A stretch of DNA of 64,000 nucleotides, from contig NC_090418.1 in NCBI RefSeq assembly GCF_036365525.1, forward strand, positions 5,433,492 through 5,497,491, read 5' to 3'. Numbering within the stretch: position 1 is the stretch's first letter; each line of letters starts with the position of its first letter. The translations under genes were made by a program, and so were the position numbers. Under the pieces are notes generated by a model. The model was given only the letters and a program-made list of their open reading frames with translations. It did no database searches and was not told where the DNA came from. This DNA is from Heterodontus francisci. Taxonomy: Eukaryota. Positions 15,683 to 56,550 of the stretch are shown here, one piece after another.

Positions 15683-16250
15683 ATGTCGCTCAACAATTTC
15701 CACTTCATTCATAGCATCAAAAACTCGCCTGCCGTCTTCCGCCGGAGGTTTAAGAAGGACAAGACCAAGAACCTGTCCCACGGTGACCCGCTGTTCAAGG
15801 TGCATTACATGGGGATGGAGAAAATCTACTCTCTGCAGGTTGAACAGACCAGGGATGTAGTCGACCGCCTGGTGGGCAAGGAGTCATGCAAGACCTGCAA
15901 GGACCATGCGTTGGTGGTGAGGCCGCGCTACCTAGAGGTGAAGGAGATCTCAAGCGGCCGGCAGATCACCAAGACCTATCTCCATGACATTGCCTACTGC
16001 ACCGCGGACAGAAGCCACACCAACGTGTTCCTCTACATCTGCAAGAGCAGAGGGCAGCTCCAGTGTCGTGTGTTCCTGTGCAACAAAGCAGAGAAGGCAA
16101 AGGCCATCACAGTCTGCTTGGCAAAGTCCTTTGAGACCGCGTTCAGTCAATGGCATGAGACATATCGTGGTCAAGCACTGCCGGTCCCCTCATCAGGTAC
16201 TGATTCTGGCTCTGAGAAACAGGACAATCCTTGTAGTCACACAGAAAAAG
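15683..16250 (+). CDS. PTB/PID-domain adaptor, LDLRAP1(ARH)-like paralogue, coding exon 1
   Basis: FKVHYMG...IAYCTADRSHTNVFLYICK..LQCRVFLCNKAEKAKAITVCLAKSFETAFSQW resembles the ARH PTB (ISYCTADKMHDKVFAYI..LECHAFLCTKRKMAQAVTLTVAQAFKVAFEFW). Acceptor ccag at 15635, in-frame stop at 15656, donor AAG|GTGAGC at 16250 (phase 1). Confidence 0.88.
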
Positions 16251-16475
16251 GTGAGCAAAGTCCTTGAGTAAAAAAGACCTATGTAGAATTCCTTAAAATT
16301 TAAGCATAGAGACAAGCCATTCGGTCCAACCAGTCCATGCTGGCATTTAAGCTCCACTCGAGCCTCCTCCCATTGTTCCTCATCTCACTCGATCAGTGAC
16401 CTCTATCAGCTGGAAGGACAAGGGCAGCAGGCGCGAGGGAACACCACCACTTGCAAGTTCCCCTCCAAGTCACAC

Positions 16476-23927: not shown

Positions 23928-25134
23928 TCTTCTTTTGGGCCTCCTTATCTCGAGAGACAATGGATACGCGCCTGGAGGTGGTCAGTGGTTTGTGAAGCAG
24001 CGCCTGGAGTGGCTATAAAGGCCAATTCTGGAGTGACAGGCTCTTCCACAGGTGCTGCAGAGAAATTTGTTTGTTGGGGCTGTTGCACAGTTGGCTCTCC
24101 CCTTGCGCCTCTGTCTTTTTTCCTGCCAACTACTAAGTCTCTTCGACTCGCCACAATTTAGCCCTGTCTTTATGGCTGCCCGCCAGCTCTGGCGAATGCT
24201 GGCAACTGACTCCCACGACTTGTGATCAATGTCACACGATTTCATGTCGCGTTTGCAGACGTCTTTATAACGGAGACATGGACGGCCGGTGGGTCTGATA
24301 CCAGTGGCGAGCTCGCTGTACAATGTGTCTTTGGGGATCCTGCCATCTTCCATGCGGCTCACATGGCCAAGCCATCTCAAGCGCCGCTGACTCAGTAGTG
24401 TGTATAAGCTGGGGATGTTGGCCGCTTCAAGGACTTCTGTGTTGGAGATATAGTCCTGCCACCTGATGCCAAGTATTCTCCGAAGGCAGCGAAGATGGAA
24501 TGAATTGAGACGTCGCTCTTGGCTGGCATACGTTGTCCAGGCCTCGCTGCCGTAGAGCAAGGTACTGAGGACACAGGCCTGATACACTCGGACTTTTGTG
24601 TTCCGTGTCAGTGCGCCATTTTCCCACACTCTCTTGGCCAGTCTGAACATAGCAGTGGAAGCCTTACCCATGCGCTTGTTGATTTCTGCATCTAGAGACA
24701 GGTTACTGGTGATAGTTGAGCCTAGGTAGGTGAACGCTTGAACCACTTCCAGAGCGTGGTCGCCAATATTGATGGATGGAGCATTTCTGACATCCTGCCC
24801 CATGATGTTCGTTTTCTTGAGGCTGATGGTTAGGCCAAATTCATTGCAGGCAGACGCAAACCTGTCGATGAGACTCTGCAGGCATTCTTCAGTGTGAGAT
24901 GTTAAAGCAGCATCGTCAGCAAAGAGGAGTTCTCTGATGAGGACTTTCCGTACTTTGGACTTCGCTCTTAGACGGGCAAGGTTGAACAACCTGCCCCCTG
25001 ATCTTGTGTGGAGGAAAATTCCTTCTTCAGAGGATTTGAACGCATGTGAAAGCAGCAGGGAGAAGAAAATCCCAAAAAGTGTGGGTGCGAGAACACAGCC
25101 CTGTTTCACACCACTCAGGATAGGAAAGGGCTAT
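23928..25134 (-). mobile_element. 5'-truncated RTE-clade LINE (RT C-terminus plus terminal C2H2-like finger)
   Basis: Uninterrupted 375-aa frame: KQGCVLAPTLF, ELLFADDAAL, FTYLGS, LLYGSEAW, RLRWLGHV.RM, CSTCGRACHSRIGLYSH. Short aagaaga tail. Confidence 0.93.
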
Positions 25135-29423: not shown

Positions 29424-30620
29424 GACTCTCCCTCTATCTCCCATCCCTCAGTGTCTCTCCCTCCATCTCCCCTCCCTCAGTGTGTCTCTCCCTCTATCTC
29501 CCATCCCTCAGTGTGTCTCTCCCTCCATCTCCCATTCCTCAGTGTCTCTCTCCATCTCCCATCCCTCAATGCGTCTCTCCCTCCATCTCCCATCCCTCAG
29601 TGCGTCTCTCCCTCCATCTCCCATCCCTCAGTGCGCCTCTCCCTCCATCTCCCATCCCTCAATGTGCCTCTCCCTCCATCTCCATCCCTCAGTGTGTCTC
29701 TCCCTCCATCTCCCATACCACAGTGTGTCTCTCTCTCTCCATCTCCCATCCCTCACTGTGTCTCTCTCTCTCCATATCCTATCCCTCAGTGTACCTCTCC
29801 CTCCATCTCCCCTCCCTCAGTGTGTCTCTCCCTCCATCTCCCATCCCTCAGTGTGTCCATCCCTCCATCTCCCATCCCTCAGTGTGTCTCTCCCTCCATC
29901 TCCCATCCCTCAGTGTCTCTCCCTCTATCTCCCGTCCCTCAGTGTGTCTCTCCCTCCATCTCCCATTCCTCAGTGTCTCTCTCTCCATCTCCCATCCCTC
30001 AGTGCGTCTCTCCCTCCATCTCCCATCCCTCAGTGTGTCTCTCCCTCCATCTCCCATCCCTCAGTGTGTCCATCCCTCCATCTCCCATCCCTCAGTGTGT
30101 CTCTCTCTCCATCTCCCATCCCTCAGTGTCTCTCTCTCCATCTCCCATCCCTCAGTGTCTCTCTCTCCATCTCCCATCCCTCAGTGTCTCTCTCTCCATC
30201 TCCCATCCCTCAGTGCGTCTCACCCTCCATCTCCCATCCCTCAGTGTGTCTCTCCCTCCATCTCCCATCCCTCAGTGTATCTCTCCCTCCATCTCCCATC
30301 CCTCAGTGTCTCTCCCTCCATCTCCCATCCCTCAGTGTGTCTCTCCCTACATCTCCCATCCCTCAGTGCGTCTCTCCCTCCATCTCTCATCCCTCAGTGT
30401 GTCTCTCCCTCCATCTCCCATCCCTCAGTGTCTCTCTCTCCATCTCCCATCCCTCAGTGTGTCTCTCCCTCCATCTCCCATCCCTCAGTGTATCTCTCCC
30501 TCCATCTCCCATCCCTCAGTGTGTCTCTCCCTCCATCTCCCATCCCTCAGTGTCTCTCTCTCCATCTCCCATCCCTCAGTGTGTCTCTCCCTCCATCTCC
30601 CATCCCTCAGTGTGTCTCTT
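29424..30620. repeat. Pyrimidine-rich minisatellite, ~30-32 bp unit (ctccctccatctcccatccctcagtgtgtct)
   Basis: Direct reading; accounts for the low-complexity ORFs in all three + frames. Confidence 0.95.
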
Positions 30621-30982
30621 CCCTTCTCTGATTTTTCAACGTGCACGCAATAAACCTGTATTGATTGCTCTATACTGCTACTCTGATTCCCCACCATCGC
30701 AAACATGTTCTAAAGCCCATCAGGGCAGTGAATAAAAATATCTTGCTGGGAACCTGTGTCTTCCCCTCCCTACCCTCCCTGCACCAACACTGACACTTCA
30801 TAAGTTCAGCTACACGCAAGTAGTCGCTGTGATCCCAGTCCCTGGGCATTATATACAATCAACTGCTTCCCGACTCTGTACCCCTTGTCCTTCCCTCTAT
30901 CCATATATTTTAATTGGCCTACGCTACTCTTTTCTGGATTTGTTCCAGAGTTTTGTATGAAAGCTGAAGGAAACCTGCCCAG

Positions 30983-31119
30983 TCACTCGCCATTGGATAA
31001 GCTGCTGTCGATCCCGCATTCATCGTCCGCTTCCTCCTCCATCTCTCTCAGCTTCTGTTTCTGCATCTCGTGGAGAGCTTTTACATGAAATCTGTTCAGA
31101 GCTTCCAGTTCCTCCAAAA
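30983..31119 (-). CDS. Uncharacterised ~283-aa conserved protein, exon 8 (terminal)
   Basis: Acceptor ttttctttcag, phase 1. VLEELEALNRFHVKALHEMQKQKLREMEEEADDECGIDSSLSNGE*. Confidence 0.78.
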
Positions 31120-33315
31120 CTGAAAGAAAAAATAAACCATTTGCACAGCTCCTGGGAATTAACAGAAAGGCATGCTAGCCATCCACACTGCCTCGTCTCC
31201 CGCCACAAATAGTAAATTGTCTCTGCTCATTCGATGAATAGAAGCTTTTTTATGGATATGAAATGGGAGACTTCAGAAATGTGCTGCATTGCACCACCTA
31301 CTGGCCAGACCTCGCAACAACAGTGTTACAGGAAACTGTTTACATAAAGAATTCACTTGTAAATGTCTACATGGGAACAGGAGACCATTCAGCCCTGGAG
31401 CCTGCTCCGCTGCTCAGTTATATCACGACTAATCTGTACCTCAACTTGATTTACCTGATGTAGCTCGACCTCCTTCAACCCCCTTGCCCAACAAAAAATC
31501 TATCGCTCTCAGTCTCGAAGGTTCCAACTGTCCCTCAGCATCCACAGGCTTTCAGGGGCAAGCGTCCCAGATTTCCACTAACCTTTATGTGAAAAAGTGC
31601 TCTCACTCTTCAATGCTCTAGTTATAATTTTGAGATTATGTTTCCTCATTCTGGATTCTCCTGACCAGATGAAATAGTTTTTATCTACCCTGTCAAATTC
31701 TCTCCATAAACCAGTGTGCATCCCAACTTCTCATTCCTGCTTTAAGACACTCCTTCAAACCTACTTCGTTGAGGTGAACCAAGTTTTTGGCCACCTGTAT
31801 CACCTATGTAACTCGGTGTCACATTTTGCTTCATAATGTTCCCGTGAAGCGGTTTGGGACATTTAATGTCATTAAAGGCACTATATAAACACAAGTTATT
31901 GTTGTTGCTTAAACCTCATGTCAGATCACCCCTCAGAGCTTCTGTACTCAAGAGAATACAATCCAACTTTATGCAACCTGTCCTCATAATTTAACCCTCT
32001 AAGTCCAGGTATAATTCTGGTGAATCTGCACTACATACCCTCCAAGGTCACTATATCCTCCCTGGGATGAGGTGCCTAGGGAAGAACACAGTTTCAATGT
32101 TACATAGAGTCATTTAAGGCACAGAGGAAGCTATTCGGCCCATTGAGTCCATGCCAGCTCTCCACGGAGCTATTCAGTCAGTCCCATTCCCTTGCTCGAT
32201 CCCCATAGCCCTACAAGTCTACTCCCTTCAGGTGGCCATCCAATTCCCTCCTGAAGTCATTGATCGTCTCCGCTTCCACCATCCTTGTGGGCAGCGAATT
32301 CTAGGTCATTACCACTCACTGCATAAAAAAGTTCTTCCTCACATTCCCCCCTGCATCCCTTGCTCAAAACCTTCAATCTATGTTTCCTCGTCCTTGGACC
32401 ATTTGTTAATGGGAACAGTTTTCCCTTGTCTAACTTATCTAAGCCTGTCATAATCTTGTACATTTCTATTAAATCTCCCCTCAATCTCCTTTGTTCTAAG
32501 GAGAATAGCAGAATGTTGGCAGAAAAATATGACCCATAATCACGATGAGAAGACGTTGCAGAGGATGTATATGTACGCACAAATTTTTTAAAAATAATCT
32601 AGCAGGTGGTCTCCCGTTGCTTTGCCCAGTGAAAGGCAGGGCAAGAGACACTTCCCTCCGAGTGTCTCTGTGATGCTTCTGAAACTCCATCTAATGGTTG
32701 ACGTTTGCATCTGCAAGGGTGCGATGCTTAAACAAAGAGTGCACAACATACATAAAAGAACTTGTAATGCATTTCACAACCACAGGACGCCCCAGAGCGC
32801 TTTTGAACCGATGAAGTGCTTTCTGAAGTGTATCACAGTTGTAATGCAGGAACCATGAGAGCAACTATGCACATAGCATGTTCGCAAAAACAGGACTGTA
32901 CTAAAGACTGGTAATCTGTTTTTAGTGATGTTAGTTTTCCGTACTTAGAATGTTACAGCGCAGAAACAGGCCATTTGGCCCAACTGAGCGTCTCCCCCCC
33001 CCTATCAGCATATCCTTCTATTCCTTTCTCCCTCATGTGTTTATCCAGCTTCCCCTTAAATACATCTACACTATTCACCTCAACCATTCCCTGTGGTAGT
33101 GAGCTCCACATTCTCACCACTCTCTGGGTTAGGAGGTTTCTCCGGAATTCCCTATTGGATTTATCAGTGACTATTTTTTATTTTTGGAACCATTTCACAC
33201 GTTAGAATCAGAAAATTCTGTTGTTGCTAACAGAAAAAACAAAGGTAAGAATCGAAGTGGAAACAGGAGGTGAGGAGTGGCCGTTTACCACTTATACCAA
33301 CACACTGCGCATTAC

Positions 33316-33513
33316 CTTTGGTGTAATAGGGCTTCTCCCGATTTCCATAGATCACAATTCTCTGTAGGAAGTTGGCCATAGCACCCGATGCCAGAAATCT
33401 CTCTATCAGAGGGAGAGACTCAAAGTACCTGATGTCCAGGGTGAATGGGTTCGATGGTGGAGGCCATGTGCAGAGTTGCACCAATTCAGCCACTATCTCC
33501 CAAATCAGTATGC
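33316..33513 (-). CDS. Uncharacterised ~283-aa protein, exon 7
   Basis: tctccgcag acceptor, gtaatg donor, phase 1/1. GILIWEIVAELVQLCTWPPPSNPFTLDIRYFESLPLIERFLASGAMANFLQRIVIYGNREKPYYTK. Confidence 0.85.
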
Positions 33514-34725
33514 CTGCGGAGAGACAGGAAGCATGATGCTGATGAGAGTGAGGGAAGCTGTTGAAAGGCAGGAGATGGAGGAGGTCGCTGGGTAGTGATC
33601 AGGGTACTGAATTAGACAATCAGCCATGAAAATGGCGGAGGAGGCCCAAAAGGCTGAATGGCCTCCTCCTGCTCCTATTTTCTATGTTTCTAGGAGCAGG
33701 AACTGCAACAAGAGGGGTGGAGACACTGAGAAAGACAGTGTGACGACTGGAAGCTTAAGAGTTCCAAATTAAGGCAAGACTGATGGGCTGACTATCTCCT
33801 CTGTCTGCTCGTTGCAAGAGAAGACAAAGAAAGGACCCGCATTTCTATAGAGCCATCACCACCACAGGGCATCCCAAAGCGCTTTGCAACCAATGACATA
33901 TGGTAGCATAGTGGCTATGTTACCGGACTAGTAATCCAGAGGCCTACAGTGATGATCTGGAGCCATGAGTTCAAAAGTCCCAGGACCAACACTCTTCACT
34001 TTATTGAATAGAAAATTCATTAAAAATAAACAATGAAGGCAGATAGAAGGAAAATTCATGGAGTTTGTGACTTGGTAGGTTGTTTACGCTCTGTGAAAGA
34101 AATGGGCTTGGTGGGCTAAATGGAATTGCCGTTCAACAGATTTCTGTTAGGTAAGGCCGTGGAGCAAAGGCGGGTTAATGTTGCTTGGGTACGGCTTGAC
34201 CGTGATCTAAATGAGTGGTGGAGCAAGCTCGAGGGGCTGAATGGCCTCCTCCTGTTCCTCATTCTTTACACAGAGTACAGAGTACTGACTGGGGGTGGTG
34301 GGGGGGACGCAGAGAAGAGGCAACTAACAAAATAATGATGGCTGACATCTGTGTCCCCCAGAAGCTTCAAAACAAATTCACCATTGCTGAGCTTCACAGA
34401 CCAAGGTCACAGGGTTGGCTGCTGGGCTGTATGAGCTGGGGCAATGGCCCAAGTGTTCCCTGGGCTTGGACAACTTGGCCACAGGTCAATTCCTGATGGC
34501 TGCCCTGTGACCCTGCAGAGCGCACAAGTGGGGATGCCTGATTGTGAATCCGTTCACAGTTGAACAGCCCACCGACACTCACTGTCAAGGCCCACTGTGT
34601 GAATGAGGGTCACTCGGGTGAAGTAGGGCCATTGCTTCTGATCCAAATCCCAGTTACGTGATTTACAGAAACGCGTGCAGTCTTGTAGACAGGGTCAGCC
34701 CCATGCCGTTCGACAGAAAACATAC

Positions 34726-34891
34726 CATTCTGCTGCCATTCCAAAGTGGAGTTCAGCTTCAGAGGGCTGTCCTTGGCTGCCCAGACCTCACTGGTTGTTT
34801 TAATGAGACGCTCGTGGTTGGATCGGATCCACACATACGGGCACTGGTACTTGGCATAGCATGCCAAGAGGAAGAGGGTACAGTTCAGTTC
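34726..34891 (-). CDS. Uncharacterised ~283-aa protein, exon 6
   Basis: ctaacag acceptor, gtatgt donor, phase 0/1. ELNCTLFLLACYAKYQCPYVWIRSNHERLIKTTSEVWAAKDSPLKLNSTLEWQQN. Confidence 0.85.
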
Positions 34892-35081
34892 CTGTTAGAG
34901 ACATGCATTGCATTAGGCAGACTTGTCACATGTAGCTTGGCACTGATGTAAACTGACAGTGTTAGTGGGTGAGGCAAAATAAAGGTACAGAGAGAGAGCA
35001 CAGCAATGTTACAGCATTATACTGCCACTCCCCTGAAACTGGGTATATTTGCAGTAAAGGAGAAATTGCTCGGTTACTTAC

Positions 35082-35154
35082 CGGGAGTGCAATTTCTCGA
35101 TCACATGGAGAGGCTGGAGGCAGCCCCACATCCGCGTGTCCGCAACCACTCATC
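35082..35154 (-). CDS. Uncharacterised ~283-aa protein, exon 5
   Basis: tttcttcgccag acceptor, gtaagt donor, phase 2/0. MSGCGHADVGLPPASPCDREIALP. Confidence 0.78.
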
Positions 35155-36084
35155 CTGGCGAAGAAAGGAAAACAAATTATTAATAGGAGAGAGGAAAAAG
35201 GACAAAGAGTGAAGGAAGGAAGTAATTACTTTTTAAACACAGTTACTGTTGTTATGTAGGCAAACACAGCAGCTAATTTCCACCGAGCAAGATCCCAAAA
35301 CACCAATAAGATGAATGAACAGTCAAAGGGTTTTTTTTCTAGCTGAGGGAGGAGTGTTGGCCTGGACACTGGGAGGAGTGACTGCTCTTCTTCCAAAAGT
35401 GCCATGGGATCTTCTCTGTCCACCTGAGCACAGACTGGGCCTCAGTTTAACATTCTATCCAAAAGACAGAGGAGGAATTGGAGACGATGGGGGAACAGAG
35501 GAGGAAAGAATGGTTACAACAGAGCTATGTAATGGGTACTGCTGTACGAATGCCTGGGAGAAACAGGCCTGTCTCAGGATTTGGGTGTTCCCGTGAGGAA
35601 GGAACGCTGGTCAGGGAACCGGGCTCAGAATTCATGCAGGCAAGTTAAACAGTGAAGGTTTTCTCTTGTTATCAGTTGGTCCGCCCCACAGGACTAGCCA
35701 ATGTGAATCAGGGAGAGTAAGAAACTCCTGGGACTCCACACTATGGCCACCTGTTTGGGAGGCGAGCCTGTACTCGTCTGCACCAATTAGAATGCACAGC
35801 AGGTCCAGCAACATCTGGAAAGAGGAAAGGTTAACGCTTTGGGGAGTTTCTGACACTTTGATGTGGCTTTCCCTCTTTCAGATACTGACTAGCCAGCTCT
35901 GCATTCCGAGCATTTCCTGTTTCCTTTTTGGGAGTTTCCCAGCACTTGGCAACTGTTCCCACTGTTCTCGAGCTCACCAGCGGGTTTCCCTAGCATTTGC
36001 TGGTGAATCTTACCACTGACGTGCAGTAGTGTGGTGGTGGATTGGGGGGGCGGGGGAGGAGATTGGCAAACAGCATTGCTTTAC

Positions 36085-36203
36085 CTCTTCTGTGATCGCA
36101 GCGACGCCAGCAGAGATTGGTCAGCGTAGGGTAGCTCAGCAGCTCCAAAATCCTCATCGGGAGAATTAATCAGACTCCCGGGAAAACTAGCTGATCGCCA
36201 GCT
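36085..36203 (-). CDS. Uncharacterised ~283-aa protein, exon 4
   Basis: cttttcag acceptor, gtaaag donor, phase 0/2. SWRSASFPGSLINSPDEDFGAAELPYADQSLLASLRSQK. Confidence 0.72.
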
Positions 36204-37203
36204 CTGAAAAGATGTGGATAAGAAAAGACAGACTCTTGGTTCAGAGAGATGGAAATTACAACATAGAAGGAGGCCTTTTGGTCCATCATGTGTGTGCTAG
36301 AATTACACAGAATGTCCAGCACCCAAACAGGCCATTGGGCCCATTTGCTCAATGCTACACGAGCCTCCTCCCATCCTATTTCATCTAACCCTATCGGCAT
36401 AACCTCCTACTTCATATAAGACACTGTTTAGGCCAGTTAGAAACTGCTCAAGTACGTTTCACGCTGGATTCCTGCAGCGCGGAGGCCGAGTTGCATCAGC
36501 TCAGAGGAATTGCTGGATGTGGACAGGCCAAGGTCCACTGAGTTCACCTACTGCCAACCTGGGGTAGTCACATGATACAGCAACATTGGCGTTGTTGACT
36601 AAATCACAACAATCAATCTCTGAGGTGAGGGAAACCCCAGTGGTGCAGAGCTTTTTTTTAATTCATTGACGGGATGTGGGCGTTGCTGGCAAGGCCAGCA
36701 TTTATTGCCCATCCCTCATTGCCCTTGAGGTGCCTTCTTGAATACAACTGAGTGGCTTGCTGGGCCATTTCAGAGGGCAGCTAAGAGTCAACCACATTGG
36801 TTGCGGGTCTGGAGTCACATGTAGGCCAGACCTGGTAAAGACAGCAGATTTCCATCCCTAAAGCGCATTAATGAACAATCTGATAGTTACATGGCCACCA
36901 TTACTGAAACTAGATTTTTAGTTCAGATTTATTTAATTCATTGCATTTAAATTCCCCAGCTGCCACAGTAGGATTTGAACCCATCTCCAGATTATTAGTC
37001 CAGTTACATAACCACTATTCTACTATACCCTGTAAACTAAGCATGCTACACTTGCATCTCGACAGTCTGGAGTGGACTTGAACCTAGATCCAAAGCCTGT
37101 GTCTAAGCTACTGAATCATCTTTTTCTTCCAAATGGTCTCACTCATTGACACATAATGTCCACGCACAATTACTTTCCAATTGGGGGCAGATATCCAATA
37201 CAG

Positions 37204-38207
37204 CAGGATTGTCCAATCTTTTTGCGTGGTGGGACCATATTACAATTTTTGTCCTACATGGGGGCCGGTGAGAACATTTCAGAAAGATAAAGGTATTAAA
37301 CCTGTATCTTATTATTAATTAAAACAACAACAAATGTGCATTTTTGTGAAGAAACTTTAAATGAGAAGACTCATTTATTGACTTTTTTTCTCGTCACTAT
37401 GTTGAACACTGATTTGGTGAGATACCTGGCATTGTTTTTGCTTGCATTAGTGGTCAATCTCTGCCTGCACACTTGTAGCAGCAATGCGGTGTATCCCAGA
37501 TAGATCTCCATCTGTCGGAAGTGATCTTGATCTCTCTCTCCCTCCCCCCCTTTCCCTCTCTCTCCCCTCCTCTCTATCTCATGATCTCCCCCTCCTCTCT
37601 CCATCTCACAATCTCCATCTTCTCCCTCGCTCCATTTCTCTCTCTAACTCTCTCCACGGGTGGTGGAGCCGGTGAAAGAGGGGGAAAACAAGGTGACCAC
37701 TAATCGGCCTCCCTAAAATCAGCAATGACCCTTGTGGCAGACATTTTCGCCATTAAAACACCCAAATGAAACTGCTGGAAATGAAGGTCTGGCAAGTCTC
37801 TAACAGGCTAACTGATCCTCTCTGCCACTTTACCCCTCAATTATTAAGTAGAAATTTTAACTCTTTGCGATTGTGTAGAATGCCTGACTCTCTCTCTAAG
37901 GGCGCCCTAGCGTTCCCCCCCCCCCCCCCACTGCTCCTCTGGCTGTGTGATGGCCCGTTCCAGCTGTCCCCTCGGTCTCTCTCTCTCTCTCTCTCTCTCC
38001 CCCCCACAGCAGCCATTGACTCATTCACTCCCTGAACCACGCAAAAACAGCAGGAGCAGCCGATCCCAGCACGCCTGTGCCGCAAGTCACCAATCAGTGC
38101 TCACCCCACCTGGGCAACCCACTGTCAGTTACAAAGGATTGGCGGGCCAGATTGAAACCTTTGGTGGGCCGGACTCTGGCCCACGGGCCTTATGTTGGAC
38201 AACCCTG
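37204..38207. mobile_element. Non-autonomous hAT (Charlie-like) DNA transposon
   Basis: TIRs caggattgtccaa / ttggacaaccctg. Diverged 8-bp TSD caatacag / ctacacag. Subterminal gggccggactctggcccacgggcc motif. Confidence 0.7.
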
Positions 38208-38807
38208 CTACACAGCAACAACATCACCTTGCAATTATATAGCACCTTTAATGTAGTAAAACATTCCCAGGGCGCTTCACATGAGTGCTATCGAACAAAA
38301 TTCGACACTGAGACACATAAAGGGATATTAGGGGCAGGTGACCAAAAGACTGGTCAATGAGGTAGGTTTTAATGAGCATCTTAAAGGAAGGGAAAGAGAT
38401 AGAGAGGCAGAGAGGTTTAGGGAGGGAATTCCAGAGCTCAGGGCCCAGGCAGCAAAAAGCACGGCCACCAATGGTGCCACGATGAAAATCGGGAATGCGC
38501 AAGAGGTCAGAATTGGTGGAACACGAATTTCAGAGGGTTATAATGCTAGATGAGATTACAAGAATGAGAATTTTCCTGGCTGTGTTTCGCCCATCGTAGC
38601 CCAAGGTCACTGAATATAATTGTGGCAGGTGCTACTTGAGGCTACGATCAGCAAACAGGGCAAAGACCAGCAACTGAACTTGGCACCTACTGCTTTGTAG
38701 GGTCTGGTTCTACACTGGTACCTTCACCCACCAGGAAATGCCCCTTCAGCTCAATGAGAAGCATAGGACTTATAACAAGTACCAAAGCTGCTTAGGACAA
38801 TACTTAC

Positions 38808-38879
38808 GACATCCTCATTCACCACAGTCAGTAGCAGCTCCTCGCGACCTCGCAACCAAGGCTGAAAGTATCTGAAACC
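38808..38879 (-). CDS. Uncharacterised ~283-aa protein, exon 3
   Basis: ctctttcgcag acceptor, gtaagt donor, phase 0/0. GFRYFQPWLRGREELLLTVVNEDV. Confidence 0.85.
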
Positions 38880-39846
38880 CTGCGAAAGAGATCAGAAGAA
38901 AACAGTAGCTCTCAATGGAATGGCTGGACAGACCCGTGATTTCCCACAATGTTAAATCTCCAACTCAGGTTTGACAGCAGCTCAGGGAGCTGAGCACGAA
39001 ATCTAGGCTGGCACTCCTCATTGCAGTTACTGAGGGGGTGCTGCACGGTCAGAGAAGGCTCTCGTTCAGATGAGGCATTAAAACAAGGCCCCGCCTGCAC
39101 TCTCAGGTGGATGTAAAAGATCCCGCCGCCATTATTTCGAAGAAGAGCAGTTCAGTTTTCCCCAGTTTCCTGGATCAATATTTATCTCTCAATCAACACC
39201 AGTAAAACAGATAAACTGGACATTGTCTCATAGCCGTTTGTGGGACTTTGCTGTGTGCAAATTGGCTGCCACGTTTCCTAGGCAGATCAGCCGCAATCTT
39301 ATTGAATGACAAGAGCAGGATTGAGGGGCCGTGTAGCCTATTCCAGCTCTTATTTCTTATGTTCCTCTTTTCAAAATTACTATACAGGGTCATTTGAGAC
39401 CTCAGAGGGTGGTTGACCCTGCCCTTTTGCCAGTCACCCCAGGCCCAGGGTTACGAGCCATGGCCCACGGCAGAACTAATGAATTTTCGGTGGTGATGGT
39501 GTAAAAGCTGGAACCTTGAGGGACAGCAGCTGCTTACAGACGGAGGATCCTTTGGGAAGAGGACCTGTGTTTCCTTTAAAGCACGCATGAGGAGGGCAAC
39601 AGGAAACCATCTCATGTACCTTTTCCCTAGTCATATTGCTCATTCTTCATGGAAGTTACAAAATGGGCAGCTCTTACGGGCAACTGAAGAGCAGAGCGCA
39701 GGACCGTGAGGTGCGGAGAAATGAGCCCTTGGGCAGATCACCACTATTACTGTTACACTGACTACAATTCAAACAAGAAAGTACTTCATTGGCTGTAAGA
39801 TGCTTTGGGAATGTCTGAGGTCATGATAGGAGCTATACAAATGCAA

Positions 39847-39991
39847 TAATATCAGTTGTGATGAAGGGTCACTGACCTGAAACGTTACCTCTGCTTCTCT
39901 CTTCACAGATGCTGCCAGACCTGCTGAGTATTTCCAGCATTTGTTTTTATCTCAGACTTCCAGCATCTGCAGTATTTTGCTTTTATTATAT
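39847..39991 (+). mobile_element. Short Penelope 3'-end derivative with a degenerate hammerhead motif
   Basis: gtgatgaagggtcactgacctgaaacgtt..cacagatgctgccagacctgctgag matches 25595-25725. Flanked by an aaatgcaa duplication. Confidence 0.8.
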
Positions 39992-40031
39992 AAATGCAAC
40001 TTCTTTCTGTCTCCCTTCCCACTCCCCTTAC

Positions 40032-40100
40032 CTGCAGGGATCCCAGCACCACCATATCTCCGAGAAACTCTTGAAGTTTCTTCACTTCCTTCGTTTTGTC
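40032..40100 (-). CDS. Uncharacterised ~283-aa protein, exon 2
   Basis: tttctag acceptor, CAG|gtaagg donor, phase 0/0. DKTKEVKKLQEFLGDMVVLGSLQ. Confidence 0.82.
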
Positions 40101-40797
40101 CTAGAAACACAGCACAGAAATCTAATTAGTAGGATTTGGGAGTACAGAAGCAGGCAGTAGAGCAAGGACTGGCCAGACAAGTACTGGCCATCCACCACAT
40201 GGCTCAGAGGTAACGAATCTATTTCTAAGCCACACAGAGCAAGGTGGTGTAATCTCCTATTGTGGGCTAGTTCAGCTGGGTGCAGTTATGAGCATTAAAA
40301 TAGGCTTCATTCAGGCTGCCTTGCCCAACAAGGGGAAAAATCAGTCTGGAATGGCTATTGAATAATGACTGCTGAAATGGTGCCCGTGTGTTTTCAGATG
40401 AGATGTCAAACCAAGGCTCATCTGCCCTCTCGTGGATGTAAAAGATCCGATATTTAAGGAGAACAGCAGGGGAGCTCTCCCTGGCATCTGGCCCAACATT
40501 TATCCCTCAACCAACATCAATCCCTCAACCAAATTCACGAAATGAGATGATCTAGTTATTTATTTCATTGCTGTTTGTGGGAGCTTGTTGTGCGCCAAGT
40601 GGCTGCTGCGTTTGCGATATAACAATGATTACACTTCGAAAAGAACTTCATTGGCTGTAAGGCACTTCGGGTCATCCTGAGGCTGGGAGAGGCGCTATGG
40701 GAATGCAGTACGTTTGGGCAGAAAACAAGAGAGAATAATAGACGTTAAAACATCAGTGGCAAAGACAGCGTCACTGCAATCATAAAAGGTGACTTAC

Positions 40798-40815
40798 CTC
40801 TGTTGTTGAACTCAT
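40798..40815 (-). CDS. Uncharacterised ~283-aa protein, probable first coding exon (MSSTTE)
   Basis: AACATGAG start, GAG|gtaagt donor (phase 0), pyrimidine-tract acceptor at 40827. The frame stays open upstream within the exon, so a longer N-terminus cannot be excluded. Confidence 0.62.
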
Positions 40816-41004
40816 GTTAATCGTTCCTGCATATGGGAGGTGGTAGAAAAATGTAACTATAGGGAGGAAAAATAAAATATTTCAGTTTGGAAGAGCAGAA
40901 TTAAAGACCGAAAACATTTTCTTAGGATTTTTAAAAATGTTAGCTTCATTTTTTTCTATTACAATTTGCCCAAAATTGATAATTATTTTGACTCGTTCCC
41001 AATT

Positions 41005-41280
41005 TTTGCCTATAGCAACTGTAGCAAATTTTATTGTCTCAGCAGCAAATCTCTGCAATGTGATTGTAAAACCTGATTTCTAATATTGTGAATGCATCAA
41101 CTGGACCTTTTATCTGCAGGGTTTATTCTGTGTAAATAAAGAGAATTTGCTGCATTAGGAAGTACCAGGGGAAAGGATGGAGAGTTTCCCTGAGCAACTG
41201 GGCCCCGTCTCCCCTAGCAACCAGATCCAGGCGCGCTGAGGAGGACCACACCGACGAGTGCTGAACGCTGTGCAAGATGG
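41005..41280. promoter_or_regulatory. Putative promoter of the uncharacterised gene with clustered RFX X-boxes
   Basis: GTTTCCCTGAGCAAC (41184-41198), GTCTCCCCTAGCAAC (41207-41221), TTTGCCTATAGCAAC (41005-41019); local CpG enrichment at 41200-41290. Confidence 0.55.
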
Positions 41281-43229
41281 TCCTTTCGATTAATATTAGT
41301 TTTTTTAAAAAACAAACGTAAGTCAGGGAGTTTATCTTCCTCTTGTAGATCTATATTTAACAATTGTTCTTTGTTAATGCTCGATCTTGATGACACAACC
41401 GTTGAAATAAAAGTGCTGCAGCTTTGGCGCCACAGCGCCCCCCTGTGTTGGGAGGACCTCATTGCAGCTTCTGCCCCACTTGCCCCAGAGGGTGGCATTT
41501 TGAGGGGCTTTTGGGTGTTTGGCAACCTGGTTGTGCCAAGCCCCAAGGCTTTGGCCAGATTTCCTGCCCGACACACAGCCACTTCCCGAACAGAGGATGC
41601 CGGAAATGCTCAGCAGGTTCAGGCAGCATCTGCGGAGAGAGGGACAAGGGTTAACATTATCAGGTCGATGACCCTTCAGCAGACTCATTGTTCCTTGACT
41701 TGTCCCATTGCCGCCCACCTATTGCCTCGCACCATCATCTATCTTGTCATTTAATCACGACTGCCTCCCATCCCATTGCAGACCGAACCGAAACATATGA
41801 AATCCTTAAGGGGCTTGGTAGGGTAGATGCTGAGAAAATGTTCCCCCTGGCTGGAGAACACGGAGTCACACTCTCAGAATAAGGGATCAGCGATTTAGGA
41901 CTGAGATGAGGGGAAATTTTTTTTCTTAAAAGGGTGGTAAATCTTTGGAACTCTCTACCCGAGAGGTGTGGATGCTCAGTAGTTGAGTATATTCAAGAGG
42001 GAGATCGATGGAGTTTTGGATACTAAGGGAATTAAGGGATATGGGAAATGTACAATTAGGTGGAGATTAGGTAAAAAAATCAGCCACAATCTTGTTGAAA
42101 GGTAGAGCAGGCACGACAGGCTGAATGGCTTACTCCAGCTCCTATTTTTTGTGACCTTTCCTCCCCTTGTTCCCTGCCTGTTTAAAAACTGTTAATTCTC
42201 TAATTTCTGCCAGTTCTCTCTCCACAGATGCTGCCAGACCTGCTGAGTGTTTCCAGCATTTTCTGTTTTTAATTGTGGAAGGTTATGCTGATAGGGTGAG
42301 TTGAAGAGGGCCGGTTGGAGGCTCGTGTGGAGCAAAAACACCGGCATGGTCCATTTGGGCCGAATGGCCTGTTTCTGTGCTGTTGCATTCCATATAACTC
42401 TATATAAAACATTGCGGACACTAAATCTGAGAACAAAAGCAGAAAATGTTGGAAAACCTCAGCAGGTCTGACAGCACCTGTGGAGAGAGAAACAGAGATA
42501 GTGTTTCAGATTGATCACCTCTGTAGTGCTGCTGAAAGGTCATCCACCTGAAATATTAGCTGTGTCTTTCGCTCCACAGATGATGCCTGACCTCCTGAAC
42601 GCTTCCAGCTTTTTCTCTTTTTATTTTACATTTTGTTCTTTCTTGAAGCTGCTGGGGTACAAAGTGCAGGGTCAATTCCTGTGGGAGCTTCAACCTTTTC
42701 AGCAGCACAACACGAGGGAGATGTCATGTTCTGAGGCTGGTACAATCCGTGTCTCATGTTCACCAATACAGACTTTTCCAGCACAGAATCATTACCAGGT
42801 GCAAGAAACCTTGTTGATTCTTCCTCACTAATAGCAGCTCACCAGAACTGCATTTATATAGAACCTTTAAGGTAGTAAAAGAACAGCAGCGTGATCAGAC
42901 AAAATTTGACACCAAGCCATACAAGTAAAAAGACTTGCTTTCTAAAATGTATAAGCAACTTCAGGACATCCCAAAGCACTTTACAGCCAAGCAAGTACTT
43001 TTGAAGTGTTGTAATGTAGGAAGTGTGGCAGCTCATTTGGGCACAGCAAGATCCCACAAACAGCAATGTGATCACCTGTTTTTGTAAAATTGGTTGAAGG
43101 ATAAATTTTGGTCCAGGACACAGCAGAGAACTTCCCTGTTATTCTTTGGAACAGTGGCTGAGAGATCTTTTACATTCACCAAAGAGGGCAGATGGGGCCT
43201 TGGTTAAGGGCTCATCCAAAAGATGACAC

Positions 43230-43920
43230 TTCCGACAGTGCAGCACTCCCTCACTACTGACCCTCCGACAGTGCAGCACTCCCTCAGTACTGATCCTCTG
43301 ACAGTGCAGCACTCCCTCACCACTAACCCTCCGACAGTGCAGCGCTCCCTTGGTACTGACCCTCCGACAGTGCAGCACTCCCTCGGTACTGACCCTCCGA
43401 CAGTGCAGCACTCCCTCGGTACTGACCCTCCGACAGTGCAGCGCTCCCTTGGTACTGACCCTCCGACAGTGCAGCACTCCCTCGGTACTGATCCTCCGAC
43501 AGTGCAGCGCTCCCTTGGTACTGACCCTCCGACAGTGCAGCACTCCCTCGGTACTGACCCTCCGACAGTGCAGCGCTCCCTTGGTACTGACCCTCCGACA
43601 GTGTAGCACTCCCTCGGTACTGATCCTCCGACAGTGCAGCGCTCCCTTGGTACTGACCCTCCGACAGTGCAGCACTCCCTCGGTACTGACCCTCCGACAG
43701 TGCAGCGCTCCCTTGGTACTGACCCTCCGACAGTGCAGCACTCCCTCGGTACTGACCCTCCGACAGTGCAGCGCTCCCTTGGTACTGACCCTCCGACAGT
43801 GCAGCGCTCCCTTGGTACTGACCCTCCGACAGTGCAGCGCTCCCTCGGTACTGATCCTCCGACAGTGTAGCGCTCCCTCAGTACTGCCCCTCGCACAGTG
43901 CAGCACCCCCTCAGTACTGA
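43230..43920 (-). repeat. 33-bp tandem array (~21 units) amplified inside a Deu-type SINE spanning ~42950-43990
   Basis: Unit ccctccgacagtgcagcactccctcggtactga; intact SINE body and head on either side. Confidence 0.92.
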
Positions 43921-44389
43921 CCCAGGAGTGTTGGCCTGGATTTTGCGCTCAAGTGGCTGGAGTGGGACTTAACCCCACCACCTTCTGACATTCTAGAATG
44001 GGTCTGAGAATCCCACCTGGGAATTATTAGCAAGTTGTGTTGTAGCTTTCTTGGGGCACATACTGGGCTACCTGGGGTAAATCTACAGCTAAGAAAAAAG
44101 TGAGACTTTCAAAAAAGAATAGACAATAATTGTTAGTCACCTAGTTCATCACCATTTTATAACAGTCTATAAAAATGTGGCTGTCCAGTATCTGCCCTAA
44201 TGTCACCATTTGCCATTTTGCAACTCTGTCTGCCACCCACCACTGTCCCACTCTACATGGAAGTATAGTATTCCAGATTTACCCATTTTATACCAGTGTC
44301 TGCTCAATGCACACGGGCCTCCTCCCACTCTCTTCATCTCACCCCATCAGCATAACCTTCTATTCCTTTTGACCTCATATTTAACTTCA

Positions 44390-46226: not shown

Positions 46227-46355
46227 TCAGCCCGCTCGGGCAGAGAAGAAAGGCAGGCCACGGACAAAACTGTCTAGTTTGGTTCGGAACAGTTCGCTCT
46301 GAATGGGCTCATTCATACTGCACAGGGGGTTCTTCACCACAAGCTCGACAAAGAT
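46227..46355 (-). CDS. TRAPPC1: Trafficking protein particle complex subunit 1, terminal coding exon
   Basis: IFVELVVKNPLCSMNEPIQSELFRTKLDSFVRGLPFFSARAG*. AATAAA at 46174-46179(-). The four exons sum to 438 nt = 145 aa, the known TRAPPC1 length. Confidence 0.96.
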   Translation of the reverse strand: MFVELVVKNPLCSMNEPIQSELFRTKLDSFVRGLPFFSARAG

Positions 46356-47797
46356 CTGAGAGATAAGAAAAGACAATTAGATTCCAGCCTGTAACTCACT
46401 CCTGGGTATGTTATTTTATACATAAACCACCCCTTAAACCCTTCGATTAGTTTGCAGCCTGTAACTCACACTGTGGTTTGCAACCCTCCCTGTAAAAGAA
46501 AACCAGAAAACAAGGACTTTGAACATGAATGGCAATTTCATGATTGCAAATCCAATTTTCAAAGCCGGGGCAGACAGAGGTTTGTCACTGTGGTGCTCAG
46601 GACCACACGTTCACAGGGCCCTTTGCAACAGTTTATTTCCCCACCAGTAGTAGCTGCTCTCCAGCACCTCCAAGTGGCGAGCCCAGAGAGTGTGCATCAG
46701 CTGGCTGTTTGACCAGGGCGGGCATCACATTCGCTTCTGATCCTGCCCTCATTGGACATTCTCCTGTCTAATCGAGGGGTCAGTCTTGACCAGGGCGGTC
46801 CCGAGTACAAGTAATGGCCTGAGATAGGTTAACTGTTGGGCTGATATTGGGCTCACTGTCACAAAACGAGAGATTCAGCTTTGAGAGGTGTTGCGGGGCG
46901 GGATGGAAATACAGCCAGGTTTCCCGATCACTGTTCAGCAACCCACCCGATGGAAGTAAGCACGTGCCGTTATTGGGCGAGGTCAGATTGGACTCGGGTC
47001 TGGAATCACATGTAGGCCAGACCAAGTAAGGATGGCAGATTACCTTCCTTAAAGTGAACCAGATGGACTTTTACAATAATCGATAATAGTTTTGCCTCGC
47101 CATTACTGAGACTAGCTTTCAATTACAGATTTTAATTAATGAATTGAATTTAAATTCCACCAACTACTGCGGCGGGATTTGAACCCATGTGCCCATTAGC
47201 CTGAGTTCTAGATTACTAGTCCAGTGACATTACCCCAATGCCACTGTCTTCCCCGATGTAGGAGACATGGCAGCCAATTTGCACATAGCAAGCTGCCACA
47301 AACAGAAAAGTGATAATGGCCAGATCATCTGTTTCAGTGATGTTGCCTAAGGGGCAAACGTTGGACAGGATCCTGGGAAAACTCCCCCGTTCCTCTTCCA
47401 ACAGCGGCCACGGGGTCTTTTACGCCCATCCGAGGAATCCCTGGTCTAACGTCTCAACCGAAAGACAGCATCTCCGAGTTCCAATGAAAGGTCACTGAGC
47501 TGAAACGTTATCGCTACTTCTGTCTCCACAGATGCTGCCAGACCTGCCCAGTATTTCTTGTTTTTATGTCTGACGGTGCAGCCCAGGATTATGTGCTCAA
47601 GTCTTTTGGAGTGGCGTTTGTACCACAACCCCCTGACTCAGGTGAGAGGGCACTACCCACTGACCCATGGCTGACACCGGTGGTAAAGGAGACCAGCGAT
47701 GGCCGATGGAATATCACTGTGGGAACAGCGGGTTTCAGTGATAGGGAGGAGCGAGGCGGTCGAGGAACTTGTGGATGAGGATTTCAGAAGAACTCAC

Positions 47798-47936: not shown

Positions 47937-49653
47937 CTGTTTGAATATGTTAAAGAGAAGAACTTGCATTTTTATAGCGCTTTCACATCCACAGGATGTC
48001 CCAAAGCACGTCACAGCCAATAAGGTGCTCTTTGAAGTGTAGACACTGTTGTAATGTAGGAAATCCGCAGCAAAATGGTGCACAGCAAGCTCCCCCAAAC
48101 AGCGACACGCAAATGGTCAGATAATTTTTTTTATGTTGTAGTTGAGGGATAAATGCTACACAGGACACGGGGAGAACTCCTCTGTTCTTCCTTGGATTTT
48201 CTCCACCCACCTGAGGGGACAGACAGGGCCTCCGTTTAACATCTCATCTGAAATTCGGCACCTCCAACAGTGCAGCACTCCCTCAGTACTGGCACTGGTG
48301 TGTCAGCCTTGAACATGTGCGCAAGTCTTTGGAGTGGGACTTGAACCCAGGACCTTTTGACTCAGCAGAGAGAGACAGAGCGCTACCCACTGAGCCAAGG
48401 CTGACACTTGGAGACACGTTGAGGAACCGAACAGCAGATACACAGGAGAAAGAAACAGGAGACTGCAAGAGCTGAGAGGTACTTGCCGCAGTAACGCAGT
48501 ATCACCCGCCCCAGCCCCTGCAGCTGTTCCAGCAACAAACTAAGCCAGCACCGCACCCTTATATTGCTAATGGAGAGCAACATCTGTAGCAAATCTCTCC
48601 ATTTGATGGGAGCTTTCCTCTGTATCAAACCTTTTTTTTTCTAAATTGCAGCCTTCCTTGATGGTTCAATCCACTCTGCGTTCACCTCTCTCCAGTTACT
48701 GCAGTCTCCACTCTGCATTCACCTCTCTCCACTGTGCAGTTGCAGCAGCACAGGTGCAGCTGCTCCCCCTGATTGCAGGCGGGAAGTGCTCCAATTGCCC
48801 AGCCAATCCCAGTGCTGTACCTGTCCTGGGAGCATTTGATGGGGACAGTGTAGAGGGAGCTTTACTCTGTATCTAACCCTGTGCTGTACCTGTCCTGAGA
48901 GTGTTTGATGGGGACAGTGTAGAGGGAGCTTTACTCTGTATCTAACCCTGTGCTGTACCTGTCCTGGGAGTGTTTGATGGGGACAGTGTAGAGGGAGCTT
49001 TACTCTGTATCTAACCCCGTGTTGTACCTGTCCTGGGAGTGTTTGATGGGGACAGTGTAGAGGGAGCTTTACTCTGTATCTAACCCCGTACTGTACCTGT
49101 CCTGGGAGTGTTTGATGGGGACAGTGTAGAGGGAGCTTTACTCTGTATCTAACCCTGTGCTGTACCTGTCCTGAGAGTGTTTGATGGGGACAGTGTAGAG
49201 GGAGCTTTACTCTGTATCTAACCCTGTGCTGTACCTGTCCTGGGAGTGTTGATGGGACAGTGTAGAGGGAGCTTTACTCTGTATCTAACCCCGTTTTTTT
49301 TTTTAAATGTCACACTGATTCAATAAAGGGCACTCTTCTGAGCTTGAGGGTAAAACATATTAGGGCAACAAAGAGGGAGCTTTACTCCGTATCTAACCCC
49401 ATTTTCTTTTTTTTTAAATAATACAATGGGCCCTGTCTTTGCTCTGTATCTAACCCCATTTTTATTTTTTGTGCTGTACCTCTCCTGGGAGTGTTTGATG
49501 GGACAGTGTAGAAGGATCTTTACTCTGTATCCTACCCAGTCATGTACCTGCCCTGACATTGACAGCAACAAGCGGAAACGTTTCAAGCGTGTAGCATGTC
49601 AAACTATCGGACATGCAGGCAGGTTTGCTACAGGACGTGGCAGCAAAGGATAC
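47937..49653 (-). other. U12-type (minor spliceosome) GT-AG intron of TRAPPC1
   Basis: 5' site GTATCCTTTG (49653-49644). Branch site TCTTTAAC (47956-47949) about 13 nt from the CAG, with no polypyrimidine tract. Confidence 0.88.
48812..49293. repeat. 69-bp tandem repeat, ~7 copies (partial copies to ~49555)
   Basis: gtgctgtacctgtcctgggagtgtttgatggggacagtgtagagggagctttactctgtatctaaccct starts at 48812, 48881, 48950, and so on. Confidence 0.93.
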
Positions 49654-51689: not shown

Positions 51690-51788
51690 TTGCTCCCTCG
51701 AGATGCCTGCGTGTTTCTTCCGGTTCCACTCACTATAATGGAGGCAGACACCGTTCCGATCAAAGATGTACAGATTGTGGACTGTCAT
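51690..51788 (-). CDS. TRAPPC1: Trafficking protein particle complex subunit 1, coding exon 1
   Basis: MTVHNLYIFDRNGVCLHYSEWNRKKHAGISREQ; gtgagt donor. Acceptor tag directly before the ATG implies a non-coding exon upstream (candidate donor gtaagg at 56091). Confidence 0.96.
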
Positions 51789-52118: not shown

Positions 52119-55100
52119 GTAGGTGGTGGCGTAGTGGTATTATCACCGGACTAGTAACCCAGAGACCGGTGATAATACCACTACGCCACCACCTACATGT
52201 GACTCCAGACCCACAGCAATGTGGTTAATTCTTACATGCCCTCTGAAATGAGCCTAGCAAGTCACTCAGTTGTATCTAACCGCTACAAAGTCTATAAAAA
52301 GGAATGAAACCGGACGGACCACCCAGCATCGACCTAGGCACCGGAAACGACAACAGCAAACGCAGCCCTGTCAATCCTGCAAAGTCCTCCTTACTAACAT
52401 CTGGGGGCTTGTGCCAAAGTTGGGAGAGCTGTCCCACAGACTAGTCAAGCAATAGCCTGACATAGTCACACTCACGGAATCATACCTTACAGACAATGTC
52501 CCAGACACATGGTGATGGCAAACACGAGGGGACATAGCTTTAAGTTGAGGGGTGAAAGATATAGGACAGATGTCAGAGGTAGTTTCTTTACTCAGAGAGT
52601 AGTAGGGGCGTGGAACGCCCTGCCTGCAACAGTAGTAGACTCGCCAACTTTAAGGGCATTTAAGTGGTCATTGGATAGACATATGGATGAAAATGGAATA
52701 GTGTAGGTCAGATGGTTTCACAGGTCGGCGCAACATCGAGGGCCGAAAGGCCTGTACTGCGCTGTAATGTTCTAATTCTAAAACACTGCCATCACCATCC
52801 CCGGGTATGTCCTGTCCCACCGGCAGGACAGACCCAGCAGAGGTGGTGGCACAGTGATATACAGTAGGGAGGGAGTTGCCCTGGGAGCCCTCAACATTGA
52901 CTCCGGACCCCATGAAGTCTCATGGCATCAGATCAAATATGGGCAAGGTAACCTCCTGCTGATTACCACCCAATGCCCTCCCTCAGCTGATGACTCAGTA
53001 ATCCTCCATGTTGAACACCACTTGGAGGAAGCACTGAGGGTGGCAAGGGCACAAAATGTACTCTGGGTGGGGGACTTCAATGTCCATCACCAAGAGTGGT
53101 TCGGTAGCACCACTACTGACCGAGCCCTAAAGGACATGGCTGCGAGACTGGGTCTGCGGCAGGTGGTGGGGGAACCAACACGAGGGAAGAACATACTCGA
53201 CCTCGTCCTCACCAATCTGCCTGCCGCAGATGCATCTGTCCATGACAGTATTGGTAGGAGTGACCACCGCACAGTCCTTGTGGAGACGAAATCCCGCCTT
53301 CACATTGAGGATACCGTCCATCGTGTTGTGTGGCACTACCACTGTGCTAAATGGGATTGATTTCGAACAGATCTAGCAATGCAAAACTGGGCATTCATGA
53401 GGCGCTGTGGGCCATCAGCAGAATTGTACTCAACCATAATCTGTAACCTCATGGACCGGCATATCCCCCATGCTACCATTACCATCAAGCCAGGAGACCA
53501 ACCCTGGTTCAATGAAGAGTGCAGGAGGGCATGCCAGCAGCAGCACCAGGCATACCTCAAAAAGAGGTGTCAACCTGGTGAAGCTACAACCCAGGACTAC
53601 TTGCATGCCAAACTGCATAAGCAGCATGCGATAGACAGAGCTAAGCGATCCCATAACCAACGGATCAGATCTAAGCTCTACAGTCCTGCCCCATCCAGCC
53701 TAGAATGGTGGTGGACAATTAAACAACTAACTGGAGGAGGTGGCTCCACAAATATCCCCATCCTCAATGACGGGGGAGCCCAGCACATCAGTGCGAAAGA
53801 GAAGGCCGAAACATTTGCAACAATCTTCAGCCAGAAATGCCGAGTTGATGACCCATCTCGGCCTCCTCCTGAAGTCCCCAGCATCACAGATGCCAGACTT
53901 CAGCCAATTCGATTCACTCCACGTGATATCAAGAAACGACTGAAGGCACTGGATACTGCAAAAGCTATGAGCCCTGACAATATTCCGGAAATTGTACTGA
54001 AGACCTGTACTCCAGAACTTGCCATGCCCCTAGCCAAGCTGTTCCAGGACAGCTACAACACTGGCATCTACCCTGCAATGTGGAAAATTGCCCAGGTATG
54101 TCCTGTACACAAAAAGCAGGACAAATCCAACCCGGCCAACTACCGCCCCATTAGCCTACTCTCAATCATCAGTAAAGTGATGGAAGGTGTCATCAACAGT
54201 GCCATCAAGCGGCACTTGCTTAGCAGCAACCTGCTCAATGACACTCAGTTTGGGTTCCGCCAGGGCCACTCAGCTCCTGACCTCATTACAGCCTTGGTTC
54301 AAACATGGACAAAAGAGCTGAACTCCAGATGTGAGGTGAGAGTGATTGCCCTTAACATCAAGACAGCATTTGACTGAGTATGGCATCAAGGAGCCCTAGC
54401 AAAACTGAGGTCAATGAGAATCAGGGGGAAAACCCTCCGCTGGCTGGAGTCATACCTAGCACAAAGGAAGATGGTTGTGGTTGTTGCAGGAAAATCATCT
54501 GAGCTCCAGGACATCACTGCAGGAGTTCCTCAGGGTAGTGTCCTAGACCCAACCATCTTCAGCTGCTTCATCAATGACCTTCCTTCAATCATAAGGTCAG
54601 AAGTGGGGATGTTCGCTGATGATTGCACAATGTTCAGCACCATTCGTGACTCCTCAGATACTGAAGCAGTCTGTGTAGAAATGCAGCAAGACCTGGACAA
54701 TATCCAGGCTTGGGCTGATAAGTGTCAAGTAACATTCGCGCCACACAAGTGCCGGGCAATGACCATCTCCAACAAGAGAGAATCTAACCATCTCTCCTTG
54801 ACATTCAATGGCATTACCATTGCTGAATCCCCCACTATCAACATCCGAGGGGCTACCATTGACCAGAAACTGAACTGCAGTAGCTATATAAATACCGTGG
54901 CTACAAGAGCAGGTCAGAGGCTAGGAATCCTGAGGCGAGTAACTCACCTCCTGACTCCCCAAAGCCTGTCCACCATCTACAAGGCACAAGAAAGGAGTGT
55001 GATGGAATACTCTGGATGCTCTCCAACAACACTCAAGAAGCTCAACACCATCCAGGCCAAAGCAGCCCGCTTGATCGGCACCCCATCTACAAACAAACAT

Positions 55101-55500
55101 TCACTCCCTCCACCACCGACGCACAGTGGCAGCAGTGTGTACCAGCTACAAGATGCACTGCAGCAATGCACCAAGGCTCCTTGGACAGCACATTCCAAAC
55201 CCACGACCTCTACCAAATAGAAGGACGAGGGCAGCACACACATGGGAACACCACCACCTGCAAGTTTCCCTCCAAGTCACACACCATCCTGACTTGGAAT
55301 TATATCGCTGTTCCTTCACTGTCACTGGGTCAAAATCCTGGAACTCCCTTCCTAACAGCACTGTGGGTGTACCTACCCCACATGGACTGCAGCGGTTCAA
55401 GAAGGCGGCTCACCACTACCTTCTCAAGGGCAATTAGGGATGGGCAATAAATGCTGGCCTGGCCAGCGACGCCCACATCCCATGAATGAATTTTTAAAAA
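52119..55500 (+). mobile_element. Apparently full-length, decayed CR1-group LINE (APE endonuclease + RT) with a tRNA/SINE-like 5' head, in TRAPPC1 intron 1
   Basis: LLTNIWGL, TES, RGGG, VGDFNVHH, LDLVLT, SDH (APE); NYRPISLLS, QFGFR, GVPQGSVL, FADD (RT). Several stops and frameshifts. TSD aatgag (52113-52118 / 55501-55506). Confidence 0.92.
52509..52782 (+). mobile_element. CR1 3' fragment nested in the LINE endonuclease region
   Basis: [29 protein letters not shown]; ttctaattcta tail; acac duplication; the host frame (NVPDT|AITIPGY) resumes after it. Confidence 0.88.
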
Positions 55501-56039: not shown

Positions 56040-56550
56040 TCGGGGACTCAGGCAGCGCGCTGGACAACCCCAGCTTGGGGGCCTTCCTTACAAATAGTCG
56101 CAGTGTGCCGCGGGATTTATGAATAAATTACACCAATTAATGAAAAAAATAAATTGATTTAACCGGACTCCCCCTCCCCGACTAAACGCCTCGAGAATAA
56201 GAGCGACGCCGCGGTTCATCATGCCCTCTCGATATAGATACTTTAAAAAATACTTCCCAGTTGCCCTGATGAGTACCGCCGGGGTCTTTCTTTCTGTGCG
56301 TGTGTTTGAAGGTGTTGGTTTGTGGAGGGGTTTTTTTGTCCGCTGTTTGATGCCGGTGAGTTTTTGCGGGGGGAAGTGAGGCAGCGTACGGGGCAGCTGG
56401 ATCATAACCGTTGGGGTCCTTGCCCGCACGCGGGCGCTGTGGTGATGACGCGCCGGAGAGCGGTTGCTATGGCGGCTTCGAACGCGGGACTGAGAAAAAT
56501 TCCCCAGAAACCGGAAAAAAAGAGAGAGACAGGCGGTAACAGAGCTCAGA
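56040..56550. promoter_or_regulatory. CpG-rich bidirectional promoter region for TRAPPC1 (-) and CNTROB (+)
   Basis: High CpG density between divergent genes. X-box-like GTTGCTATGGCGGC at 56463-56476, CRE half-site TGACG at ~56446, ETS-like CCGGAA at ~56511. Donor-like sites on both strands (56091 -, 56356 and 56536 +). Confidence 0.7.

Follow-up and report, generated by a model that had tools for sequence, protein, structure and literature searches.

The minus-strand gene at 30983..40815 of the analysed window (64,000 nucleotides of Heterodontus francisci contig NC_090418.1) encodes a member of the DUF7886 family with a predicted E2-like fold and no conserved cysteine. The protein is very probably an E2-fold variant. 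We favour, with modest confidence, a catalytically inactive variant that serves as a ubiquitin/traffic adaptor and is not restricted to the cilium. The useful result here is the fold assignment, which Pfam's own description of the family may already mention.

All seven introns of the eight-exon gene have GT donors and AG acceptors, the exon phases are compatible, and the spliced coding frame of 852 nt, including the stop codon, yields 283 residues (Table 1). The coordinates, splice sites, phases and frame given in the preliminary description were all verified. The spliced product is identical at 283/283 residues to the NCBI protein P0001, named 'uncharacterized protein si:dkey-19b23.7 [Heterodontus francisci]', which was returned by a search with exon 7. 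Thus the gene, earlier described as hidden, had already been annotated; the suggested kinship with si:dkey-19b23.7 and DUF7886 was correct, as seen from the name of P0001 and the matches to Pfam PF25377. The family match occurs at one locus at least in the shark genome, and by sequence comparison the gene appears to be the single-copy orthologue of si:dkey-19b23.7. The proposed check of splice junctions in RNA was made with contigs of public runs from two studies, presumed to be RNA and of unrecorded tissue. In X1 record 1, exon 7 is joined directly to exon 8 with no mismatches and no intervening letters. In X2 record 8, a contig of 1364 nt that derives from another organism, exons 8, 7, 6 and 4 are tiled at consecutive record positions among the alignments listed, with a 73-nt gap that is exactly the length of exon 5. 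The contigs extend past exon 8 into the 3' UTR.

Table 1. Coding exons and candidate regulatory sites of the DUF7886 gene (window coordinates)
Feature	Position	Strand	Remarks
Coding exon 1 piece	40798..40815	-	ATG at 40815, residues 1-6; GT donor; identical to P0001
Coding exon 2	40032..40100	-	Residues 7-29; most of helix 1 of the predicted E2-like core
Coding exon 3	38808..38879	-	Residues 30-53; strands 1-2, joined by the near-invariant RGREE hairpin; not covered by the Pfam DUF7886 model
Coding exon 4	36085..36203	-	Residues 54-93; insert of low confidence and variable length (about 6-98 residues in relatives)
Coding exon 5	35082..35154	-	Residues 93-117; last part of the insert, then the PPASP motif, which aligns to the E2 loop preceding strand 3
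Coding exon 6	34726..34891	-	Residues 118-173; strands 3 and 4, H143, D158-P160, K162, W169
K162 codon	34757-34759	-	In exon 6; aligns to the E2 catalytic-Cys position
Coding exon 7	33316..33513	-	Residues 173-239; core helix 2, NPF motif, first C-terminal helices
Coding exon 8	30983..31119	-	Residues 239-283 and stop; long C-terminal helix with H250, acidic tail
X-box-like site	41207..41221	-	One complete half-site, 2 mismatches in the other
X-box-like site, best of three	41184..41198	-	1 mismatch, 3-nt spacer; sole match in the window to the stricter pattern
X-box-like site	41005..41019	-	1 mismatch, 3-nt spacer

Directly upstream of this gene, on the same strand, lie exons of a TRAPPC1-like gene (46233-46361 and 51693-51788, Pfam Sybindin). 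Head to head with the latter is a plus-strand gene without a Pfam match (56462-56477 and 58248-62680), which we take to be centrobin-like; the centrobin and TRAPPC1 genes are presumably adjacent in human too. X-box-like sites occur at 56463 and 58294, at the centrobin-like gene, and two more at 14429-14506, with a plus-strand exon of a PTB/PID-domain gene (15659-16264; PID_2, E 1.5e-8) that we assume to be FAM43-like. A 33-bp minisatellite of more than 15 kb occupies positions 18-5475 and continues past the left end of the window (L068 1-10000). Further arrays are found at 29426-30624, 43231-43923, 48808-49291 and 56553-58117, and the long frames at 52780-55220 (plus strand) and 23980-25130 (minus strand) resemble, by eye, remnants of LINE reverse transcriptases.

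The shark protein scores 192.9 bits against DUF7886 (PF25377; cut-off 27 bits, E 2.7e-57, model positions 1-144 of 144), and exons 6 and 7, each alone, are far above the cut-off. The Pfam model spans residues 108-252 only and lacks helix 1 and strands 1-2, which together form the N-terminal half of the predicted E2-like fold. In a Pfam scan the 104 members match 15 families, the sole recurring second family being UEV, and the protein is a stand-alone, single-domain-family product. Family-wide candidates for an invariant surface are R39-G40-x-E42-E43, Y129, Y132, W138, R140, D158, W169 and N194-P195-F196; the polar residues R39, E42, E43, Y129, Y132, R140, D158 and H250 are kept in 87-102 of the 104 sequences, from fungi to sharks. 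No published function was found in the literature searched, which comprised few subscription papers and partial supplements and names neither the gene, nor the family, nor any of four orthologue identifiers.

The predicted core comprises helix 1 (residues 2-26) and a four-stranded antiparallel meander (34-38, 43-49, 121-127, 136-139), its sheet split by a disordered insert at about residues 50-119. There follow an E2 flap with Lys162 at the place of the catalytic cysteine, helix 2 (176-187) and the NPF loop. This succession of helix, meander, flap and helix in the predicted structure is that of the E2-variant (UEV/RWD, UBC-like) fold. The three predicted C-terminal helices (200-273) are positioned unlike those of canonical E2s. 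The family is matched weakly by a profile built from 56 E2 fragments (P about 0.05), a score also reached by one of 60 block-shuffled controls. In this weak alignment PPASP falls on the E2 loop that precedes strand 3, while H143 corresponds to the HPN histidine, K162 to the catalytic cysteine and W169 to the conserved tryptophan; the NPF loop matches the proline-rich loop following helix 2. Equivalents of several E2 motifs are retained: Tyr-x-x-Pro before strand 4, the histidine at the HPN place, Trp169, and the proline-rich loop after helix 2. The shark genome's own UEV exons gave a near-gapless alignment of 52 columns (E 0.15-0.24), with K162 opposite a tyrosine. Cysteine was found at position 162 in none of the 104 sequences, and there is no conserved cysteine column, the highest holding at most 48/104. 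Of the HPN motif and active-site Cys of canonical E2s, the histidine is kept in 68/104 sequences, and both Pro-Asn and the cysteine are absent. A UEV is defined as an E2 fold that lacks the catalytic cysteine, according to a passage in PMC10942982.

Searching 1.84 billion sequences with a profile made from 40 vertebrate sequences gave 580 representatives at E <= 0.001. Of these, 150 were listed and 30 looked up, with an organism name obtained for 23 clusters. Thirteen named clusters are animals (bony and cartilaginous fish, Xenopus, lamprey, sea urchin, hemichordate, molluscs, jellyfish, Trichoplax), two are choanoflagellates, three are zoosporic fungi and five are fungi without flagella, namely the three Mucorales Lichtheimia, Syncephalastrum and Chlamydoabsidia, together with Basidiobolus and Tieghemiomyces. 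The Atlas top cluster consists for the most part of Mucoromycota. Mucoromycota and Zoopagomycota are non-flagellated, as stated in an excerpt of PMC7865070. The tree, built from 150 of 161 sequences (11 with fewer than 90 core columns were omitted), places animals beside choanoflagellates and keeps the named fungi together, the pattern expected of one orthologous family; it also includes many further lineages. A word-seeded search with the Xenopus protein gave 205 matches; the 120 listed include frogs, newt, lungfish and fishes, and reptiles, birds and mammals are absent from them. This agrees with the absence from mammals suggested as possible in the preliminary description, and loss in amniotes is likely. 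No Dikarya, insect or nematode names occur among the matches listed. As far as sequence comparison goes, the gene is ancient and common to early fungi through frogs.

The minus strand does contain three X-box-like sites, located 190-406 bp upstream of the ATG and within 217 bp. A scan with the plain consensus is at chance in the window (39 matches, 31.7 expected), and a stricter pattern matches once (41184-41198; 0.66 expected). A looser definition, built from a consensus and set after the sites had been seen, gives 24 sites in the window, with two of the six best in this cluster; three such sites were held by none of 4000 simulated 500-nt windows, the definition being post hoc and the start site unmapped. 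The cluster is probably real. Just past it, the plus strand carries at 41277-41325 an ATG, then 13 codons and a strong GTAAGT donor, which may represent the first exon of a divergent or antisense gene. RFX peaks have their centres slightly upstream of start sites; in ependymal cells RFX1 is found at 7440 sites and RFX3 at 9318 sites (excerpts of PMC7498320). Conserved RFX/FOXJ1 sites accompany 29.4% of the known ciliary genes, against 9.7% of all human genes (PMC6522010, in its Table 1), and thus an X-box multiplies the odds of a role in cilia by about three, no more.

The reading proposed earlier, a dedicated ciliary or basal-body protein under RFX control, draws on this cluster. Ciliated or flagellated lineages make up 18 of the 23 named clusters, and one of 120 listed names, that of the tilapia record P0032, is 'centriole, cilia and spindle-associated protein'. 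However, this name looks like an automatic transfer, since another fish member, P0096, is named 'Elongator complex protein 2'; both are probably mis-annotated. The five flagella-less fungi retain the core residues and motifs, amniotes, though ciliated, are missing from the Xenopus matches listed, and the two IFT-A rows have a probability of just 0.02-0.03. Since the gene is shared from early fungi to frogs, it is probably not cilia-specific. With non-flagellated fungi in 5/23 named clusters, its distribution appears to be the wrong pattern for a core ciliary gene. The orthologue names are absent from the expression supplements searched, tables that are partial or have no control genes. Given also the E2-variant fold, the ciliary claim is weak, and we consider a dedicated ciliary protein very unlikely.

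Two other readings share the predicted fold. The E2 fold might be used outside the ubiquitin system, as an RWD-like scaffold forming a structural subunit of some complex. This is unlikely, as the E2-specific motif equivalents are retained and UEV is the only second Pfam family to recur. The protein could also be an enzyme with a new, cysteine-free active site built on this fold from the invariant polar residues. The conservation of these residues and the stand-alone product speak for such an enzyme; on the other hand, no enzyme other than E2s was matched and conserved polar surfaces are equally typical of binding sites, which makes it very unlikely.

An adaptor role in the ubiquitin/traffic system is plausible, if held at somewhat less than even confidence. 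The protein would form no ubiquitin thioester and would act by binding, like VPS37A, TSG101 or MMS2. The invariant surface candidates, from the RGREE hairpin to the NPF motif, suggest one conserved partner, to which they would be presented in ubiquitin handling or in endosomal/autophagic membrane traffic. The hairpin of strands 1-2 is presumably the site where TSG101 binds ubiquitin. The VPS37A domain does not bind ubiquitin, according to another passage in PMC10942982, and thus an E2, a ligase, an ESCRT subunit and a membrane are all candidate partners. The C-terminal helices may serve assembly and the insert regulation. The function would be general, in cells with and without cilia; RFX factors may drive the gene in vertebrates via the X-box cluster, which is compatible with the adaptor reading, and in amniotes the gene has probably been lost. 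A bolder version, which we regard as distinctly unlikely, is that DUF7886 proteins are overlooked ancient stand-alone UEV adaptors, an extra ubiquitin/membrane-recognition arm beside TSG101, VPS37A and MMS2 that predates the animal-fungus split, disappeared from amniotes and, it seems, from higher fungi, and in fishes and frogs became controlled by RFX factors, coupling ubiquitin/ESCRT sorting to cilia.

A cysteine-less E2 fold would place this domain of unknown function in the small, well-studied class of TSG101, VPS37A and MMS2, and it names residues worth mutating. Retention in lineages as far apart as zygomycete fungi, choanoflagellates, sharks and frogs, with no amniote among the matches listed, points to a ubiquitin/traffic step that would have escaped the usual models, yeast, mouse and human cells. 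Zebrafish or Xenopus would be direct test systems.

Among known E2 relatives, the UEV-like domain of VPS37A (PDB 8e22; ESCRT-I, phagophore closure) is 9-11% identical to the shark protein. Its Z is tied with those of canonical E2s and thus indicates no special kinship; Mod(r) or another ESCRT-I core family, as in TSG101 and VPS37A, was matched by 0/104 members in the Pfam scan. The UEV family of TSG101/Vps23 and UEVLD (PF05743) gives a sub-threshold match from strand 3 to helix 2, at best 18.5 bits against a cut-off of 27 bits, with 3/104 members at E <= 0.1. In both the DUF7886 protein and the shark genome's UEV exons, strand 4 is followed by a long loop of similar size. Unlike TSG101 and UEVLD, the DUF7886 protein has a big insert after strand 2, and the Pfam scan of members found no coiled-coil/steadiness-box family. 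Compared with MMS2/UEV1A and canonical E2s (UBE2G1, UBE2C, UBE2N; PF00179), it lacks the catalytic cysteine and the HPN asparagine; its C-terminal helices are not superposable on those of E2s, the alignments ending near E2 residue 115-133. By the tests made, the shark protein lies outside the Pfam UEV family, ESCRT-I and the active E2s, and we tentatively suggest that this DUF7886 member works like a UEV.
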